Of a stretch of DNA of 64,000 nucleotides, positions 4,130 through 59,869 are shown piece by piece. The position numbers and the translations under genes are program-made. The stretch covers positions 8,461 to 72,460 of the forward strand of contig CAZWTF010000006.1 in assembly GCA_964636815.1 (NCBI GenBank), given 5' to 3'. The notes beneath the pieces are model-generated. The model ran no database searches. It worked only from the letters and a program-made list of their open reading frames with translations, and was not told the DNA's origin. Position 1 is the first letter of the stretch; each line of letters starts with the position of its first letter. The DNA is from an uncultured Pseudomonadota bacterium (GTDB taxonomy: Bacteria; Babelota; Babeliae; Babelales; Vermiphilaceae).

Positions 4130-5445
4130 AAAAAATTAAACTTCCTCAAGTTGTCGTTGTTGGGCGTACCAACGTTGGCAAATCTACACTATTTAATCGT
4201 TTGTCTGAAAATGTAAAAGCTATTGCATTAGACCTTGAAGGTGTAACGCGTGACTTTTTAAGAGATACTATTGCATGGCAAGGGAGAAGTTTTGAGCTTA
4301 TTGATACTGGTGGTATCAGTTTGCGAAAAACACAAGATCCTATTTTAAGCCAATCGCGAGCTATTGCTTTATCAATGATTGAATCAGCAGACATTATTTT
4401 GTTTGTTGTTGATGGTAAAGCAGGTTTGGTGACTGAAGATCGTGAAATTGCGCAGTTGTTGCATAAACACGGTAAAACTGTGTTTTTAGTTGTTAACAAA
4501 ATTGACGTTAAGGATGCAGCGGAAAACATGTATGAATTTGAAGGTCTTGGTTTTCCAAAAAGTTGCTTTATCTCTGCTGCCCATGGGAAAAACATTGTTG
4601 ATCTTCTAGAGCTGATTGTTGCACATTTACCAGCACCTTTAATGGTTGAAGTTGAAGAGCCTGCATATAAGATTATGTTATTAGGTAAACCTAATGTTGG
4701 TAAATCATCATTAATGAATTTGTTGCTTGATAAAGATCGCGCAATTGTGTCTCCTGAAGCAGGAACAACTCGTGAAGCGCTTGCTGAGCGCGTTATGTTT
4801 TATCAAGAAGATATTCAACTTTCTGATACTCCTGGTGTGCGTAGAATGCGTTCTGTTACCGAGCCGCTTGAAGGTATGATGGTGCAGAGCACAATGCAAG
4901 CATTAAAAAATTCTGACATTGTGTTGTTGCTTATTGATGCAAGTGCAGAATCAGTTGTTGATCAGGAATTAAAACTTGCGTTTTATGCATTTGAAAGCCA
5001 ATATAAAGCGCTTATTATTCTATTTAATAAATATGATCTTGTTGATGAAGGAACTAAAGTTCGCTTTGATCATGCCTTGTCTGAATATGATTTCTTTTTA
5101 AAGAAGGTGATAACGATTAATATTTCTTGTAAAACAGGAAAAAATGTTGGCAGGATTTTGCCTGCAGTAAAAGAGGTATGGGACCGTTATTCGCGCAAAT
5201 TCAATCAAAATGAGCTGACGCAACTGTTTAAAGAAGCATCAGTGCGACGTCCGTTGTATCATAATAAAAATTTATTAATGTTTCATTCTGCTCATCAGAT
5301 AAACACAGCTCCAATTACGATTGTAATGCACGTAAATCAACCAACATGGTTTGGTAGTTCGCAACTTGCGTATTTCGAGAAAGTTTTGCGACAAGAATAT
5401 GATTTACGTGGTGTACCTGTTAAATTTATTGTGCGCGCAAGGTAA
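4126..5445 (+). CDS. der: Ribosome-biogenesis GTPase Der (EngA), double GTPase domain
   Basis: Two P-loops (GRTNVGKST, GKPNVGKSS), DTGG/DTPG and NKID/NKYD motifs, and a KH-like C-terminus. The ATG overlaps the dnaX stop (ATGA). Confidence 0.9.
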   Translation: MKKIKLPQVVVVGRTNVGKSTLFNRLSENVKAIALDLEGVTRDFLRDTIAWQGRSFELIDTGGISLRKTQDPILSQSRAIALSMIESADIILFVVDGKAGLVTEDREIAQLLHKHGKTVFLVVNKIDVKDAAENMYEFEGLGFPKSCFISAAHGKNIVDLLELIVAHLPAPLMVEVEEPAYKIMLLGKPNVGKSSLMNLLLDKDRAIVSPEAGTTREALAERVMFYQEDIQLSDTPGVRRMRSVTEPLEGMMVQSTMQALKNSDIVLLLIDASAESVVDQELKLAFYAFESQYKALIILFNKYDLVDEGTKVRFDHALSEYDFFLKKVITINISCKTGKNVGRILPAVKEVWDRYSRKFNQNELTQLFKEASVRRPLYHNKNLLMFHSAHQINTAPITIVMHVNQPTWFGSSQLAYFEKVLRQEYDLRGVPVKFIVRAR

Positions 5446-5477
5446 TATGTTTTATTGTATGTAAAAAAGGGCATACA

Positions 5478-5828
5478 ATGAATAAACGTATTGTTTTTCG
5501 TAACATGGATCATTCTGACGTGATGGAAGAGTACGCAAATGGTCAACTTGAACGTATCATTGAGTTTTTACAAGATGATCGTGGACCAGTTTTTATTGAC
5601 CTTTATCTTGAACCAAGTCGTGTTCACCGTCATCATCGTGTTGAACTGCATGTCAAAAGTGCTGACTATAATTTGAATTCATCATATGAGCATGAAGGCA
5701 TGGATTTTTATGCTACGCTTGATCGTGTGATTGATACTATGTATCGTTTGTTGTGTGAAGAAAAGCGTCGACATCAAGATGAAAAGAAAAGCTGTGGTCG
5801 TCATGATGAGTTTAAAAAACAGCGATAA
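5478..5828 (+). CDS. hpf: Ribosome hibernation promoting factor / RaiA family (short form)
   Basis: 116 aa. The layout I.FRNMDHSD..EEYA...LERI and HHRVELHVKS....EHEDMDFYATLDRV parallels HPF/YfiA proteins. Confidence 0.7.
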   Translation: MNKRIVFRNMDHSDVMEEYANGQLERIIEFLQDDRGPVFIDLYLEPSRVHRHHRVELHVKSADYNLNSSYEHEGMDFYATLDRVIDTMYRLLCEEKRRHQDEKKSCGRHDEFKKQR

Positions 5829-55388: not shown

Positions 55389-56558
55389 TTATCCCTTCAG
55401 ATAACTCAAAATACCAAACATTAGCTCAATAAAAATAAGAATAATAATAAGCACAGATAGTAGATCTTCTCGAGTGGCATCTATTTTTTCTTGGAACACA
55501 GTTTGCACATCTTCAACAATGCGTAGTTTTCTATCAATTCCTTCATGCCAATTTTTTAGATCAAGTTTTTCAGAAAGAAGATTGTGAATCTCTGAATAAT
55601 AAGGTTCACCGGCAATTTTGATGCTACTTTCTAAACGTTCAGTGATTACCGAAATATCTACTTTTAGTTTACGTAACTGCCCAACAGGATCGCTGAAAAA
55701 AGTACCAAAGAATGGTAAGTAAGCACCCAACGACAGTTTTGTCTCTTTACGCTCATAAATCATGTTGATCTGCTGATCAAGAAGGCGGTCGAAAAAGCGC
55801 AATTCAAGGTGCTGGAGATTGGCAAATTCAAAGAGATCAATAATGTCGTTATAATCTTCTTCATAAACAAACGCTGCATCAATATCAATAACAATCAAAC
55901 TGCCACGGAAATAACCAATTGCTGAATCAAGCATCTCATTCTTTTGAAATTCAGATAATATTTCTGTTTCAAAACGCAATGTGGAAGCAATGGTACTGCC
56001 GTACTCTTTTTGCAGTTGGGTTAGATCAAGTACTGCAGGTTGTGGATCAACTTGTACAATGATATAAGAAGCTTTTGTTTGAAAGAATTTTGGTTGTATA
56101 ACGAAACGTTCTATCTTGTTATAAATCAGCTCAGCGTCTTTGATGCTTTGTTGTTGATACTTGTCAGCAAGCTGATCACAGTTTACACGTAAATTTTCCA
56201 GTGTATCGGAAAATGGAATTTTATATGTTAAAGATATTGCGCCAAAATTGTGTACTTTGCTACTGGTTAAATATGAATCAGAAGGTGTAGGGTGTTCTAT
56301 GGCAAGTGGGACATTGTACTGTTTAAAATGTTTTGGCAGATGAAGTGGTACTTTAATAATATCGGGTGATTCTTCGATTTTTTCAAGGTTAATGTCTTCA
56401 CCAATATCATATGCCCATAGAATGAGAATGTTTCCGGAAAATATAAGATCATTTTTTGGTTTATCAAGATCTGGAGTGAGAGATGGCATGTTCAGTTCCC
56501 TTTGATTGAATGGGTGGTTGTTATTATTGAGCATAGCTAAGATCAACGTATCGGGCAA
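55389..56558 (-). CDS. DUF155/RMD1-like protein with a C-terminal TM helix (tentative)
   Basis: Soluble ~350 aa domain ending in a single C-terminal helix LSVLIIILIFIELMFGILSYL, as I recall for the YagE/RMD1 family. The start may be the internal MPSLTP. Confidence 0.4.
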   Translation of the reverse strand: MPDTLILAMLNNNNHPFNQRELNMPSLTPDLDKPKNDLIFSGNILILWAYDIGEDINLEKIEESPDIIKVPLHLPKHFKQYNVPLAIEHPTPSDSYLTSSKVHNFGAISLTYKIPFSDTLENLRVNCDQLADKYQQQSIKDAELIYNKIERFVIQPKFFQTKASYIIVQVDPQPAVLDLTQLQKEYGSTIASTLRFETEILSEFQKNEMLDSAIGYFRGSLIVIDIDAAFVYEEDYNDIIDLFEFANLQHLELRFFDRLLDQQINMIYERKETKLSLGAYLPFFGTFFSDPVGQLRKLKVDISVITERLESSIKIAGEPYYSEIHNLLSEKLDLKNWHEGIDRKLRIVEDVQTVFQEKIDATREDLLSVLIIILIFIELMFGILSYLKG

Positions 56559-56600: not shown

Positions 56601-56750
56601 CCGCTCGCCCTGAGTGTTCTACGAAGTATAACGTAGTAGAATGTATCGAAGGGTGCGATATAAAAAAGACTTGTGTTTGTTATCTTTCCGCTTAACCCTT
56701 CGATACATTTTTGCTTTGCTAAAGCTACGAAAAACACTCAGGGCGAGCGG
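56601..56750. repeat. 150-bp palindromic element built from two inverted family 2 repeat units
   Basis: Perfect 18-bp terminal inverted repeats CCGCTCGCCCTGAGTGTT / AACACTCAGGGCGAGCGG. A second perfect inverted block ATGTATCGAAGGGT / ACCCTTCGATACAT lies inside. Confidence 0.8.
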
Positions 56751-56799: not shown

Positions 56800-56829
56800 A
56801 AAAAAAAGACGCACCATAAAAGTGCGCCT
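56800..56829 (-). terminator. Rho-independent terminator after the RGG gene
   Basis: On the minus strand: GGCGCAC-ttttatg-GTGCGTC followed by a T8 run. Confidence 0.7.
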
Positions 56830-56855
56830 TTTTTTTCTGCAAACTTAATATCAAT

Positions 56856-57602
56856 TTATCCTCGAGCTGCAACTCCGGCTGCATAACCAGCTGAATAGTC
56901 AGCTTTTTCCGCAGATCCTTGTGCGCTTTCAGCTGCTTCCATTGCATCGGCTGCTGCTTGTTCAGCTCTATCAGCTTCTGCTTTAGATGCATAGTAATAA
57001 CCATCGTAATCAGATTGATAAGGATGTGATGCACTTGCTGCTAGTGCGTATGTAAGTCCAAGGGTACCTAAGAATAATCCGTAACCGCCCCATGCTCCCC
57101 ATCCACCCCAGTCGCCGCCATGTCCATAGTAATTGTTGTATGTATTGCCACGGTTACCACGATTTCCGCGATCACCACGGTTACCTCTGTTACCACGGTC
57201 TCCTCTATTGCCACGGTTACCTCTGTTACCACGGTCTCCTCTATTGCCAGCCCCAGTACCTCTGCCACCTCTGTTAGCAACACCAGCTCTTGTTCCAGCG
57301 CCCCCACGGCCTACAGCTGCAGTACCTCTACCGCCTCTGTTTGCTACGCCAGTGCCACCTCTACCTGCAGCGCCTCTGCCAGCACCGCCCATACGAGCAC
57401 CACCAGCGCGAGCACCACCGCCCATGCTTCTACCGCCACCACCCATGCTACGGCCACCGCCGCCCATACTTCTACCACCGCCTCCACGACCACCTCCGCC
57501 ACCACCACGGCCACCACCGCCGCCGCGTGGGAATGTGTCTTGAGTGAGCAAGAGTATGCTTGCAACTATACAGAGAGCATTAATTAGTTTTTTTCCGTTC
57601 AT
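56856..57602 (-). CDS. Exported Gly/Arg-rich (RGG/GAR-like) low-complexity protein with one C-proximal hydrophobic helix
   Basis: AGGAAG SD. Signal peptide MNGKKLINALCIVASILLLTQD, then GGGRGGGGGGRGGGGRSMGGGGRSMGGGGRSM...NRGDRGNRGNRG repeats, a Trp/Gly/Tyr block, a TM-like GLFLGTLGLTYALAASA, and an Ala/Glu-rich tail. Confidence 0.7.
   Translation of the reverse strand: MNGKKLINALCIVASILLLTQDTFPRGGGGGRGGGGGGRGGGGRSMGGGGRSMGGGGRSMGGGARAGGARMGGAGRGAAGRGGTGVANRGGRGTAAVGRGGAGTRAGVANRGGRGTGAGNRGDRGNRGNRGNRGDRGNRGNRGDRGNRGNRGNTYNNYYGHGGDWGGWGAWGGYGLFLGTLGLTYALAASASHPYQSDYDGYYYASKAEADRAEQAAADAMEAAESAQGSAEKADYSAGYAAGVAARG
57175..57246. repeat. Perfect 36-bp tandem duplication inside the RGG gene
   Basis: CCACGGTTACCTCTGTTACCACGGTCTCCTCTATTG occurs twice in tandem (57175..57210 and 57211..57246). 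Looser 21-bp RSMGGGG-coding repeats lie around 57410..57480. Confidence 0.9.
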
Positions 57603-57627: not shown

Positions 57628-57843
57628 TTATTCGCAACAATGACCTTTGGGTGTTCCGTTACAATTACAGCTATTACAGCCACATCCGCATGATTTTTTT
57701 CCATCGCAATTATTGCAACGGCATTTGCATTTATCTTTGCAAGACGTAGAGCTACACGCTGATTTACCATAGTTTCCGAAGTATTTGCTTTTTTCACCTG
57801 GATTGGAATTATCGCTATTGTTGTTTTTGATATGCTTTTTCAT
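57628..57843 (-). CDS. Cys-rich mini-protein (71 aa), metallothionein-like or peptide precursor
   Basis: AAGGAG lies 8 nt upstream of ATG 57843. The N-terminal half is polar (MKKHIKNNNSDNSNPGEKSKYFGNYGK). The C-terminal 45 aa hold 14 Cys in CxC/CxxC spacing (CKDKCKCRCNNCDGKKSCGCGCNSCNCNGTPKGHCCE). Confidence 0.55.
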   Translation of the reverse strand: MKKHIKNNNSDNSNPGEKSKYFGNYGKSACSSTSCKDKCKCRCNNCDGKKSCGCGCNSCNCNGTPKGHCCE

Positions 57844-57983
57844 AAAAAGCACTCCTTTTTTTGGGGTTATGAGTTAAAAAACATCCTTCACCCTTAACTA
57901 TAATTAAAAAGAGGCTTATAACTCAATAATTCGTTTAACTTTTGCAGTAAAAATATCTATAGATGAGTGTTTTTTATACAAAA

Positions 57984-58021
57984 ATAACCTCTTTAACTAA
58001 AGATAAAGTTAAAGAGGTTAT
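57984..58021 (-). terminator. Hairpin terminator after lepA
   Basis: ATAACCTCTTTAACT-aaagataa-AGTTAAAGAGGTTAT, a perfect 15-bp stem. The T-run on the minus strand is short. Confidence 0.5.
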
Positions 58022-58048
58022 TATAAAAAAGTGTAAGTTTAGAGAATG

Positions 58049-59869
58049 TTACTTTTTCAAAAGAGATAAGAATGCCTCTTGAGGCACTTCAACAGATCCG
58101 ACCTGTTTCATTTTCTTTTTACCTTCTTTTTGCTTTTCAAGAAGTTTGCGCTTACGAGTAATATCGCCACCATAACACTTTGCAGTTACGTCTTTACGCA
58201 ATGGAGCAACCCGCTCTTTGGCGATAATTTTTGCTCCAATAGCAGCTTGAATAATAACTTCAAACAGTTGGCGATGGATAACTTTTTGTAGACGCTGAGT
58301 AAGATCTCTGCCTATATAAAATGCCCTATCTCGGTGAATAATGATAGAAAGCGCATCAACAGGCTTACCATTCAAAAGAATATCCATTTTAACAAGGTCT
58401 GCAGGCTCATAACCAGAAAACTCATAATCAAAACTTGCGTAGCCGGAGCTTAATCCTTTGAGTTCTCCATAAAATTCCATAGCAACTTCATTGAGTGGTA
58501 AGCGGTATTTTAGGATTACGCGAGTATCATCAAGGTACGTAAGGTTTTGTTGTTTGCCACGTTTTTCTTCACACAGTTTGATAACGTTGCCAAGGTATTG
58601 CTGAGGAACAATGATAGTTGCATCAATCACAGGTTCAAGAATTTCATCAATATAGTTGCGTTCAGGAAAATCTGATGGGTTTTCAATATCAATAATTTTA
58701 CCTGTGCCGGCCATTTTGATTTGATATAATACGCTTGGTGCAGTGGCAATAACTGTTAAGTTATATTCTTGTTCAAGGCGTTGTTTGAATACTTCCATGT
58801 GGAGCATACCCAAGAATCCGCACCGAAACCCGATACCAAGTGCAGCAGAGCTCTTTTTTTCAACTGAAATACTAGCGTCGTTAAGGGTAAGTTTTTCAAT
58901 TGCTTCTTCTAATAATCCAATTTCTTCACTATCCACGGGGAATACGCCCGCAAAAACCATCTGTTTTGCAGGTTTAAAGCCAGGAAATAGTTCAACAGGT
59001 TTTTTGTTGTGATAAATAGTATCACCAATTTGTGCTTCTTTAATGGTTTTCATACCAGTGATGAGATATCCAACTTGTCCTGCATAGAGAACATTAGTTG
59101 GCGTTGGTTCTGGATACATTAACCCGACTTCCAACACCTCATAATTTGAGCTTGCTTGTGCCAGACATATGGTATCGCCTTTTTTGATAACTCCATCATG
59201 CAATGCAATAAGGCAAACAACACCACGATAATCATCAAACCATGAATCGAACAGTAGTGCGCGCAGTGGTTTATCAGCTGATACATGCAAGTTTGGAATG
59301 CGTTCAATGACAGCGCTAAAGATATCAGTAACACCAATATTTGCTTTTGCTGAAGCTTGAATCACTTCTTCTGGTTTAAAGTCAAAAAGGTTAACAAATT
59401 GATTGGTTACTTTTTCTGGATCAGCATTGGGAAGATCAATTTTGTTAATGACGGGAATAATTGTTAAGTCCTGATCAAATGCAAGATAGAAGTTTGCCAT
59501 GGTTTGCGCTTGAACGCCTTGTGCTGCGTCAATTAAAAGCAATGCACCTTGGCAGGCATATAATGAACGAGAAACTTCATATGTAAAATCAACGTGGCCT
59601 GGGGTATCAATAAGATTCAGTAAATATTTCACCCCTTTGTATTCATAAAACATGGAAGCAGTTTGCGCTTTGACGGTAATGCCACGTTCACGCTCTACTT
59701 GGAGTTTATCCAAAAATTGTTCTTTTTTTTGACGCTCAGTGATGGTTCCAGATATTTCCAATAATCTATCAGATAAGGTTGATTTGCCGTGATCGATATG
59801 GGCAATAATGGAAAAATTTCTGATTCTATCGGGGGTAAATTCTTGTAAATTAGGAATGCGTTGACTCAT
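58049..59869 (-). CDS. lepA: Elongation factor 4 (LepA)
   Basis: G1 AHIDHGKST, G3 DTPGHVDF, G4 NKIDL. 606 aa with a LepA-specific C-terminal domain. Confidence 0.95.
   Translation of the reverse strand: MSQRIPNLQEFTPDRIRNFSIIAHIDHGKSTLSDRLLEISGTITERQKKEQFLDKLQVERERGITVKAQTASMFYEYKGVKYLLNLIDTPGHVDFTYEVSRSLYACQGALLLIDAAQGVQAQTMANFYLAFDQDLTIIPVINKIDLPNADPEKVTNQFVNLFDFKPEEVIQASAKANIGVTDIFSAVIERIPNLHVSADKPLRALLFDSWFDDYRGVVCLIALHDGVIKKGDTICLAQASSNYEVLEVGLMYPEPTPTNVLYAGQVGYLITGMKTIKEAQIGDTIYHNKKPVELFPGFKPAKQMVFAGVFPVDSEEIGLLEEAIEKLTLNDASISVEKKSSAALGIGFRCGFLGMLHMEVFKQRLEQEYNLTVIATAPSVLYQIKMAGTGKIIDIENPSDFPERNYIDEILEPVIDATIIVPQQYLGNVIKLCEEKRGKQQNLTYLDDTRVILKYRLPLNEVAMEFYGELKGLSSGYASFDYEFSGYEPADLVKMDILLNGKPVDALSIIIHRDRAFYIGRDLTQRLQKVIHRQLFEVIIQAAIGAKIIAKERVAPLRKDVTAKCYGGDITRKRKLLEKQKEGKKKMKQVGSVEVPQEAFLSLLKK

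Follow-up and report, generated by a model that had tools for sequence, protein, structure and literature searches.

We identified, in a 64-kb stretch of DNA from contig CAZWTF010000006.1 of an uncultured bacterium (the window, 64,000 nucleotides), a native, expressed-looking gene of a Dependentiae bacterium that encodes a Gly- and Arg-rich protein with Arg-Gly-Gly (RGG) motifs, referred to from here on as the RGG protein. It represents a new and very narrowly distributed family, in which known elements (a signal peptide, an RGG-type disordered polycation, and an alanine zipper) occur in an undescribed combination; we found no description of this family in the literature. We tentatively favor the view, which we hold to be a little short of evenly balanced, that the RGG protein is a Sec-targeted, oligomeric envelope or surface protein with a polycationic disordered arm that binds polyanions; for the present, it is a well-described orphan gene with an inferred function. 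The stretch had been singled out in a reading made from the letters alone (the sequence-only reading). Its observations were confirmed, every block that it listed being present, and its interpretation stood in part: the real gene, the signal-like start, and the repeat expansion were supported, but kinship with eukaryotic proteins and a contingency locus were not. The coordinates of the gene, its modules, and its flanking elements are collected in Table 1.

Table 1. Positions, in window coordinates, of the RGG gene, its parts, and the elements beside it
Feature	Position	Strand	Basis or remarks
RGG/Gly-rich protein gene, 248 aa	56856..57602	-	ORF listing and sequence; syntenic orthologues; dN/dS 0.08-0.51
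Signal-peptide-like N-terminus, residues 1-25, MNGKKLINALCIVASILLLTQDTFP	57528..57602	-	K4, K5, 14-15-residue hydrophobic core, polar TQDTFP
Polycationic Gly/Arg-rich low-complexity region, residues 26-152	57147..57527	-	Composition; AlphaFold2 disorder
Tri-RGG block	57471-57527	-	Within residues 26-152
RSMGGGG repeats	57411-57473	-	Within residues 26-152, along with VANRGGRGT x2 and the NRG/DRG array
Perfect 36-bp tandem duplication, then a diverged third copy	57175..57249	.	Exact duplication 57175..57246, periodicity to 57249 (75 nt); TRF
12 uninterrupted Gly-X-Y triplets (GNR/GDR), residues 119-154	57141..57248	-	Draws collagen-like database matches
Aromatic/Gly block, residues 153-174, NTYNNYYGHGGDWGGWGAWGGY	57081..57146	-	Conserved H-G-G-x-W-G-G-W-G, alignment A1
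Marginally hydrophobic helix, residues 173-191, GYGLFLGTLGLTYALAASA	57030..57086	-	Small-xxx-small ladders
Tyr/Asp-rich linker (SHPYQSDYDGYYYA), then putative alanine-zipper helix, residues 192-236	56895..57029	-	Invariant columns of alignment A2
Upstream partner gene, 71 aa, Cys-rich	57628..57843	-	13 Cys; AGGAG 8 nt before ATG; 25-nt spacer to RGG gene
Promoter-like site TTGAGT-18-TATAGT, 5' of the cassette	57897..57926	-	Consensus match only
Terminator-like hairpin 3' of lepA	57983..58022	-	Sequence; would part lepA from the cassette
Bidirectional intrinsic terminator, A8-GGCGCAC...GTGCGTC-T8	56800..56836	.	Sequence; directly 3' of the RGG stop codon

The open reading frame (ORF) of the RGG gene opens with ATG, which is preceded at ~5 nt by a Shine-Dalgarno sequence (AAAGGAAG), and its product contains 77 Gly, 38 Ala, and 29 Arg residues (31, 15, and 12%, respectively); no other Gly/Arg-rich ORF was found in the 64-kb window. 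That this minus-strand frame is a real gene, as the sequence-only reading proposed, was borne out by intact orthologous ORFs and by ratios of nonsynonymous to synonymous substitution (dN/dS) of 0.08-0.51 in the alignable N- and C-terminal modules. The same reading had described a GC-rich stretch in an AT-rich genome, and indeed the G+C content is 63.3% at 57150-57530 and 61.0% at 57100-57550; among 400-nt segments, the maximum of the whole 64 kb (62.5%) lies at the RGG gene, against a mean of 35.9% (standard deviation 3.9). Its statement that five of the six frames are free of stops was somewhat overstated: long ORFs cover 57150-57530 in five frames, and three frames contain no stop there, but two others contain 1 and 2 (the sixth contains 14). 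The G+C content at third codon positions (GC3) is 0.29 in the RGG gene and 0.33 in its repeat core compared with 0.27 in 32 other genes of the window, and the observed G+C content of the repeat core (0.626) is close to that expected from its amino acids and native synonymous codon usage (0.631). Because GC3 is near the background and the amino acid composition accounts for the GC excess, we regard the gene as native. The GC-richness is a by-product of the protein's amino acid composition, and the idea of a "GC-rich island" of foreign DNA was rejected on codon usage.

The N-terminus of the RGG protein has the n-h-c layout of signal peptides, with Lys-4 and Lys-5 in the n-region and a core (L6-L19) with a mean Kyte-Doolittle value of 1.73. 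The "good" Shine-Dalgarno site and signal peptide of the sequence-only reading were thus found as a Shine-Dalgarno sequence and a conserved signal-like segment, but not as a segment with a canonical cleavage site: the window protein has no A-x-A site and reads T-F-P|R, with Arg directly after the putative junction. In two orthologues (related loci and proteins are cited here by our L and P numbers), small residues stand at -3 and -1 (T-F-S|R in L082 and S-F-S|R in L087), and Arg occupies +1 in all of them. The same signal-like N-terminus heads both the orthologues and paralogues with very different mature regions. The arm that follows carries a net charge of ~+23 over the 147 residues from R26 to the hydrophobic helix (~26-172). 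It opens at residue 26 with a tri-RGG motif, RGGGGGRGGGGGGRGG, and the protein contains 7 RGG and 22 RG motifs in total; tri- and di-RGG motifs are said to have been defined by Thandapani et al. in 2013 as RGGs spaced 0-4 residues apart. The blocks listed in the sequence-only reading are all present, among them RGGGGGRGGGGGGRGGGGR, RSMGGGG (twice, with a third copy that reads RSMGGGA), VANRGGRGT (twice), an NRGDRGNRGNRG array, and YYGHGGDWGGWGAWGGYG; His and Met occur 2 and 6 times, respectively, in the whole protein. We used a single-sequence AlphaFold2 model, the mean predicted local distance difference test (pLDDT) score of which is low (53.5), for helix and disorder boundaries only. Residues 24-141 have pLDDT values of <50 and no secondary structure in this model, and the Gly/Arg arm is accordingly predicted to be disordered.

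The Trp/Gly/Tyr block, hydrophobic helix, and Ala/Glu-rich tail of the sequence-only reading follow the arm, with the qualification that the helix is only marginally hydrophobic: the Kyte-Doolittle mean is 1.19 over its 19 residues (family means 1.0-1.45), and the simple Hessa sum is +3.6. The model places a helix at residues 168-191 (pLDDT ~70), and we consider that residues 173-191 may serve as a membrane anchor or as an oligomerization helix. The tail (net charge -6) is modeled as a helix at residues 206-247. In this tail, Ala-210, Ala-213, Ala-217, Ala-220, Ala-224, Ala-227, Ala-231, and Ala-234 are invariant in all six aligned members, and their 3-4-3-4 spacing corresponds to the a and d positions of a heptad. 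It is on account of these invariant, regularly spaced Ala residues that we assign the tail as an alanine zipper. Consistent with this, Pfam PF11839 (Alanine_zipper) gave sub-threshold matches in five of the six members (best E 0.011; 9.7 bits for the window protein against a cut-off of 23.1), and NCBIfam NF040598 (Ala_zip_lipo) gave E values of 0.16-0.73 (10.4-12.5 bits against a cut-off of 43). Searches of the RGG protein against Pfam and NCBIfam returned no domain, and thus no RNA-binding domain.

The perfect 36-bp tandem duplication noted in the sequence-only reading is present, and Tandem Repeats Finder (TRF) describes the array as a period of 36 with 2.7 copies and 90% matches. Further tandem arrays with periods of 9, 12, 15, 18, and 21 nt occur in the gene, all of them imperfect (64-90% matches; 73% for the 21-nt period of the three RSMGGGG copies), and the Gly runs are interrupted at the DNA level by mixed synonymous codons. 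The internal duplications of the window allele (RSMGGGG x3, VANRGGRGT x2, and the 36-nt unit, of whose three copies two are identical and the third has diverged) differ in age. We note that the repeat length also differs between related species: the proteins of the window and of its closest relative, L083, have 248 and 217 residues at 94.9% LepA identity, and lengths of 166, 172, and 173 residues occur in the lineage of the His/Gly-rich variant P0028. These results support repeat expansion over evolutionary time. They do not support the further proposal of the sequence-only reading that this is a contingency-like locus: the length of every repeat unit is divisible by 3 nt, and slippage therefore alters length, not frame; only one repeat is perfect; and the consensus assemblies of the same strain (L083, L084, and L085, and likewise L087 and L088), which come from different samples, show no length change across the gene. 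Thus, the length polymorphism among strains that had been suggested as a check was seen between related species and not between consensus assemblies of one strain, and phase-variable switching, to which the codon-mixed Gly runs also give no support, is not supported by these data.

A word-index search with the whole RGG protein was swamped by Gly-rich words and returned weak architectural analogues only, and orthologues were sought with the C-terminal 99 residues alone and then with a profile of them. The C-terminal search found only 8 clusters among 5.8 billion, most of which were annotated as 62-81-aa fragments, and a metagenome scan with the profile added only two further loci. Overall, orthologues occur in at least six metagenomic lineages. 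In L081, L082, L083-85, and L087-88, they are syntenic, with the order lepA, a small Cys-rich ORF, the RGG gene, and a gene of the MJ0711_N family. The orthologous ORFs of L082 (219 aa) and L083/84/85 (217 aa) are intact, and the split gene calls in L082 and L083 are not frameshifts; the callers had picked the wrong frame in the GC-rich part. Metagenome gene callers likewise split the gene in the contigs of L081-L085, P0008, and P0159 into a wrong-frame ORF over the GC-rich part and a short C-terminal fragment. Such split and misframed calls, which affect most of the metagenomic contigs, make the family nearly invisible in protein databases and systematically under-annotated, and other GC-rich low-complexity genes in AT-rich genomes are probably under-annotated likewise. 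The L081 copy contains a one-base indel, which is probably an assembly error because lepA on the same contig is also broken, into five pieces. In L087 (762-764) and L088 (640-642), an in-frame TAG stands in the GGYWG repeat where the relatives have a Trp codon. This TAG is identical in two independent European Nucleotide Archive assemblies and leaves the signal peptide and RGG arm on one side and the hydrophobic helix and tail on the other; it marks either a decaying gene or a naturally soluble arm.

Three parts of the protein are conserved in alignment A1: the N-terminus ending in (D/N)xF(P/S)RGGGG; the block NN(Y/F)YGHGGxWGGWG..GGYG with the hydrophobic segment after it; and the tail YPYxSDYDDxYYxSxxEADRAEQAAxDA...DYSAGYAAG. 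The RGG motifs beyond the first block of ~20 residues are not conserved in the orthologues, and the central motifs vary from one to the next: the window has NRGGRGT and NRGDRGNRG, L081 and L082 have NRPGAG, and L087 has GNRP. Compared with L083, the window shows 94.9% identity in LepA and 91.8% in the downstream gene, but only 60% and 64% in the N- and C-terminal modules of the RGG protein, respectively, and the low-complexity tract comprises 142 residues in the window and 112 in L083. The dN/dS ratios indicate that the reading frame is under purifying selection at its ends. The gene evolves much faster than its neighbors, and its central tract turns over fast by in-frame slippage or duplication. 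The His/Gly-rich variant P0028 adjoins the same downstream gene in L086, L093, and L094. There (L093 201-2354, and also L094 and L086), three tandem paralogues with a common signal-like N-terminus lie upstream of the MJ0711_N-family gene: one is GW-rich and has no second hydrophobic segment; another (392 aa) has an RGG and Ser/Thr/Ala-rich mucin-like tract of ~300 residues and ends with a Trp/Tyr-rich block and a 4-Cys motif; and the third is of the P0028 type.

From these features, we propose that Sec targeting would put the cationic arm outside the cytoplasm, that the hydrophobic helix would hold the protein at the envelope, and that the alanine zipper would oligomerize it. The tethered arm would then act as a polycationic brush and bind polyanions, for example those of peptidoglycan, of anionic lipids, or of glycans on the host surface, and the role of the protein would be physical, as an envelope tether, coat, or adhesin, and not that of an enzyme or a nucleic-acid-binding factor. 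The RGG protein is probably exported, judging from several observations. Its N-terminus has the n-h-c layout, and the residues at -3 and -1 are small in L082 and L087. Architectural analogues in other bacteria have canonical ALA|RGG, ASA|RGG, and AEA|QRGG junctions. One and the same signal-like segment heads both the GW-rich paralogue and the ~300-aa mucin-like Ser/Thr/Ala-rich one. Finally, signal peptides are present in 44% of the coding sequences of the Dependentiae isolate Chromulinavorax, and ORFans are enriched among its secreted proteins (PMC6561590).

Several points weigh against this envelope model. By what is known of the Escherichia coli Sec system and signal peptidase, Pro at -1 and Arg at +1 are both unfavorable. 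Placing 27 Arg residues outside and the acidic tail inside would break the positive-inside rule. The weakness of the hydrophobic helix leaves its membrane integration uncertain, and three topologies are therefore conceivable: type I, full export, and a hairpin whose loop is cytoplasmic. Further, the conserved pairing with a Cys-rich protein that has no signal peptide is left unexplained, and the TAG of L087 and L088 cuts the arm from the anchor, implying that the anchor is dispensable or that the gene is decaying in that lineage.

The envelope model has partial counterparts among known proteins. The Lpp/OprI alanine-zipper lipoproteins (PF11839 and NF040598) are likewise small envelope proteins (the export of the RGG protein being inferred) with Ala at successive a and d positions, but the RGG protein has no lipobox or conserved Cys in the signal region, and its family has no conserved C-terminal Lys (the C-termini being ARG, TRE, VRK, NRE, and QQD). 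Lpp, for its part, has neither the hydrophobic helix nor a disordered cationic arm like that of the RGG protein (~127 residues), and the scores of the RGG protein are sub-threshold. Mycobacterial HBHA and chlamydial OmcB are polycationic adhesins, and the basic low-complexity repeat tail of HBHA binds sulfated host glycans. HBHA-type adhesins resemble the presumed design of the RGG protein in their hydrophobic N-terminal segment, coiled-coil oligomerization, basic low-complexity repeats, and occurrence in intracellular parasites; they differ in that we found no sequence similarity, the RGG tract is made of Arg and Gly and not of Lys, Ala, and Pro, and the order of modules is reversed. Closer in layout are unnamed bacterial proteins (P0001, P0003, P0005, P0034, P0077/P0167, P0106, P0117, P0136, and, from Microvirga, P0002/P0004), in which a signal peptide leads directly to RGGGG..., a basic polar tract, a Trp/Tyr/Gly block, a weak hydrophobic segment, and a Tyr-rich C-terminus. 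Their C-terminal domains are different, e.g. YYxxLPxGC...YYxCG, and the likeness may be one of composition or of descent; Pfam and NCBIfam assigned them to no curated family. One of them, P0167, is in another Dependentiae genome, in which the gene upstream (L089 5317-5862) encodes a signal-peptide protein rich in SYG and RG motifs (YRGSSYGGYSGRGSSYSSGR...). This suggests that exported low-complexity proteins rich in Gly, Ser, Tyr, and Arg are common in the phylum.

If the topology that we favor is right, the use of RGG-type disordered polycations extends beyond the nucleus and cytoplasm of eukaryotes: they would also be employed outside the bacterial cytoplasm, tethered by an alanine-zipper module, and the RGG protein would be a concrete candidate for envelope organization or protist-host attachment in the genome-reduced, intracellular Dependentiae, which have no lipopolysaccharide. 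A bolder extension, which we consider unlikely, is that the RGG protein is the first recognized member of an undescribed bacterial class of extracytoplasmic RGG-type disordered polycations (signal peptide, directly RGGGG..., aromatic/Gly block, weak hydrophobic helix, and oligomerizing tail). Such a class would be scattered across phyla and, in Dependentiae, would have diversified as fast-evolving tandem paralogues. Together with a metallothionein-like partner, these would coat the parasite where it meets its host with a charged and possibly condensate-like layer.

The charge distribution that speaks against the envelope model would be accounted for if the RGG protein were a hairpin, in which the N-terminal segment and the second helix span the inner membrane, the Arg-rich loop tethers RNA, DNA, or polyphosphate in the cytoplasm, and the zipper tail is periplasmic, as in Lpp/OprI. 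A loop of +23 and a tail of -6 obey the positive-inside rule, the first hydrophobic segment is directly followed by Arg, alanine zippers are a known feature of the periplasmic Lpp/OprI proteins, and in some of the analogues Cys pairs are conserved on the C-terminal side of the second hydrophobic segment, suggesting an oxidizing compartment there. We nevertheless regard the hairpin as rather improbable. The shortness of the N-terminal hydrophobic core (14-15 residues) and the KK in front of it are typical of signal peptides and not of N-out anchors; the second helix is marginal for membrane insertion; the analogues show clear A-x-A cleavage sites; and one paralogue that starts with this N-terminus lacks the second hydrophobic segment altogether.

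We also asked whether the RGG protein might be kin to, or a mimic of, the Gly/Arg-rich (GAR) proteins of eukaryotes. Fibrillarin, nucleolin, and FUS share with it the tri-RGG motif, richness in Gly and Arg, and predicted disorder, but the RGG protein has no homology to them and no RRM, KH, or methyltransferase domain, and it has a signal-like segment and an anchor. The kinship suggested in the sequence-only reading was therefore not upheld: the tri-RGG motif is formally present, but it comes with no domain, no homology, and a secretion-like signal. A secreted effector that mimics such proteins in the protist host, acting by host RNA binding, condensates, or methylation by host protein arginine methyltransferases, would fit the 7 RGG and 22 RG motifs, the host-dependent lifestyle of Dependentiae with their many signal-peptide ORFans thought to be secreted, and a cassette that evolves faster than its flanks (64% for the C-terminal module vs 95% for LepA in L083). 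Against it, conservation of the hydrophobic helix and of the zipper suggests a protein that stays at the bacterial envelope; the RGG-like motifs of the center give way to NRPGAG or GNRP in orthologues and to His/Gly or Gly/Trp in paralogues; bacteria that are not known as intracellular (e.g. Microvirga) have proteins of similar architecture; and no route across the outer membrane is known. We hold an effector of this kind to be quite unlikely.

No greater likelihood attaches, in our view, to a metal-handling pair, in which the Cys-rich product of the upstream gene is a metallothionein-like buffer and the RGG protein binds Cu or Zn through H-G-G-x-W and scattered Met and His, allowing survival of metal stress in the host vacuole. 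The 71-aa partner has its Cys residues in CxC and CxxC patterns, a conserved K(S/N)(K/R)YFGN motif, and a C-terminal CCx (HCCE in the window). It accompanies the RGG gene in five lineages and is the conserved upstream neighbor in L081, L082, L083, and L087; the genes upstream of the analogues in L089 and L091 are not Cys-rich, and the pairing is therefore specific to the clade of the cassette. Three orthologous partners contain 13-15 Cys (13 in the window and 13-15 in L081/L082), and that of L083, which carries a long Lys/Gly/Glu insert, contains ~7, a variation in number like that of metallothioneins. The partner thus shows the metallothionein-type pattern of high Cys content in CxC/CxxC motifs, a likeness by pattern only. 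The conserved His of the GHGG(x)WGGWG block lies in a motif that resembles the prion octarepeat HGGGW, His-rich tracts occur in the P0028-type paralogues and in the analogues P0003 and P0106, and R-x-M-G-G-G recurs. Searches of Pfam, NCBIfam, and the PDB with the partner, however, returned no family match and no metallothionein or other metal-binding model or structure. His and Met are scarce in the window RGG protein (2 and 6 residues, respectively), neither a metal transporter nor a metal regulator is encoded in the vicinity, most of the Cys residues are gone from the L083 partner, and the partner, which has neither a hydrophobic N-terminus nor a signal peptide, would be in a different compartment from the RGG protein under the topology that we favor. 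A metal-related role for the pair, suggested by the conserved HGGxW motif and the His-rich paralogues, is possible but speculative.

The composition and net charge of the arm, the peptide-like look of the His/Gly-rich paralogues, and the TAG-truncated allele of L087/L088, which would free a soluble arm, would also suit a secreted or processed cationic Gly/Arg/His-rich peptide that is active against the membranes of competitors or of the host. Glycine-rich antimicrobial peptides such as armadillidin (from an arthropod) and shepherin (from a plant) offer analogues, and armadillidins and the plant cell-wall glycine-rich proteins resemble the RGG protein in that Gly-rich repeats containing Arg, His, and Tyr come after a signal peptide and turn over fast. 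They belong to another kingdom, though, and show no homology, and the conserved anchor and zipper set the RGG protein apart from them. Known glycine-rich peptides are much shorter than the arm, the anchor and tail and not the arm are the most conserved parts, and no immunity, processing, or export genes are adjacent, and we judge such a peptide very unlikely.

A phmmer search of the full library (1.84 billion proteins) was dominated by collagen-like proteins that match residues 110-155, and the long, multistretch matches among those whose sequences were examined were collagen-like; in the PDB, almost all of the matches at E<=1 are collagens, and none is an RGG/GAR protein. We rejected these matches as homologues and attribute them to repeat similarity. 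Bacterial collagen-like proteins (Scl1/2, BclA, and phage tail-fiber repeats) do share Gly-X-Y triplets with charged residues with the RGG protein, and a collagen-like triple helix nucleated by a trimeric zipper could draw on 12 uninterrupted triplets and a candidate trimerization helix. Nevertheless, this run is specific to the window allele: the longest in the orthologues is 5-7 triplets, and NRPGAG and GNRP break the period. The tract is short, contains no Pro, lies ~50 residues (including the hydrophobic helix) from the zipper, and gives no match to Pfam Collagen, and we dismiss the triple helix as having hardly any likelihood. That the ORF is spurious or an assembly artifact of a GC-rich repeat, to which the several open frames and the disagreement among gene callers might point, is scarcely credible and largely refuted by a single frame that is intact from signal peptide to tail in independent assemblies, by dN/dS <1, by the Shine-Dalgarno, promoter-like, and terminator sites, and by a perfect repeat of just 75 nt.

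The LepA protein encoded next to the cassette (58049..59869, minus strand) places the source genome as a relative of Dependentiae (TM6): it is 71-72% identical to LepA of candidate division TM6/Dependentiae metagenome-assembled genomes and at most 57% identical to all else returned. An exact look-up of the RGG protein and of LepA in the assembly collection gave no record. In L004, L005, and L006, lepA directly abuts (~20 nt) the orthologue of 55389..56558, the MJ0711_N-family gene, whereas in the window the two are separated by 1.5 kb. This extra DNA contains, in order, the lepA-side hairpin, the promoter-like site, the Cys-rich ORF, the 25-nt spacer, the RGG gene, the bidirectional terminator, and a 150-nt palindrome. 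The RGG gene is therefore the second of two genes in a clade-specific cassette that is inserted between lepA and the MJ0711_N-family gene. A lineage-wide presence at the lepA locus was rejected: L001-L007 have no Gly/Arg-rich ORF, and lepA abuts the downstream gene in three of them.

The palindromic element (~150 nt, 56601..56750) lies between the RGG terminator and the downstream gene and has outer arms of 26 nt (88% complementarity) and inner arms of 15 nt (100%). Its arm CCGCTCGCCCTGAGTG was found at further positions in related genomes (three in L081 and two in L083), and the element looks like a repeat of the clade of the miniature inverted-repeat transposable element (MITE) or repetitive extragenic palindromic (REP) kind. 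In L081, lepA and the cassette are separated by ~0.7 kb of unusually GC-rich non-coding DNA (~5000-5700), which shows long-range complementarity on either side of a copy of the palindromic element; Rfam searches of the cassette and of this spacer gave nothing near the gathering scores. Finally, the listed TTG start of the downstream gene (55389..56558, minus strand) is probably too far upstream, as the orthologues align from MPSLTPDL (~56489); with this start, the intergenic region would measure ~366 nt.

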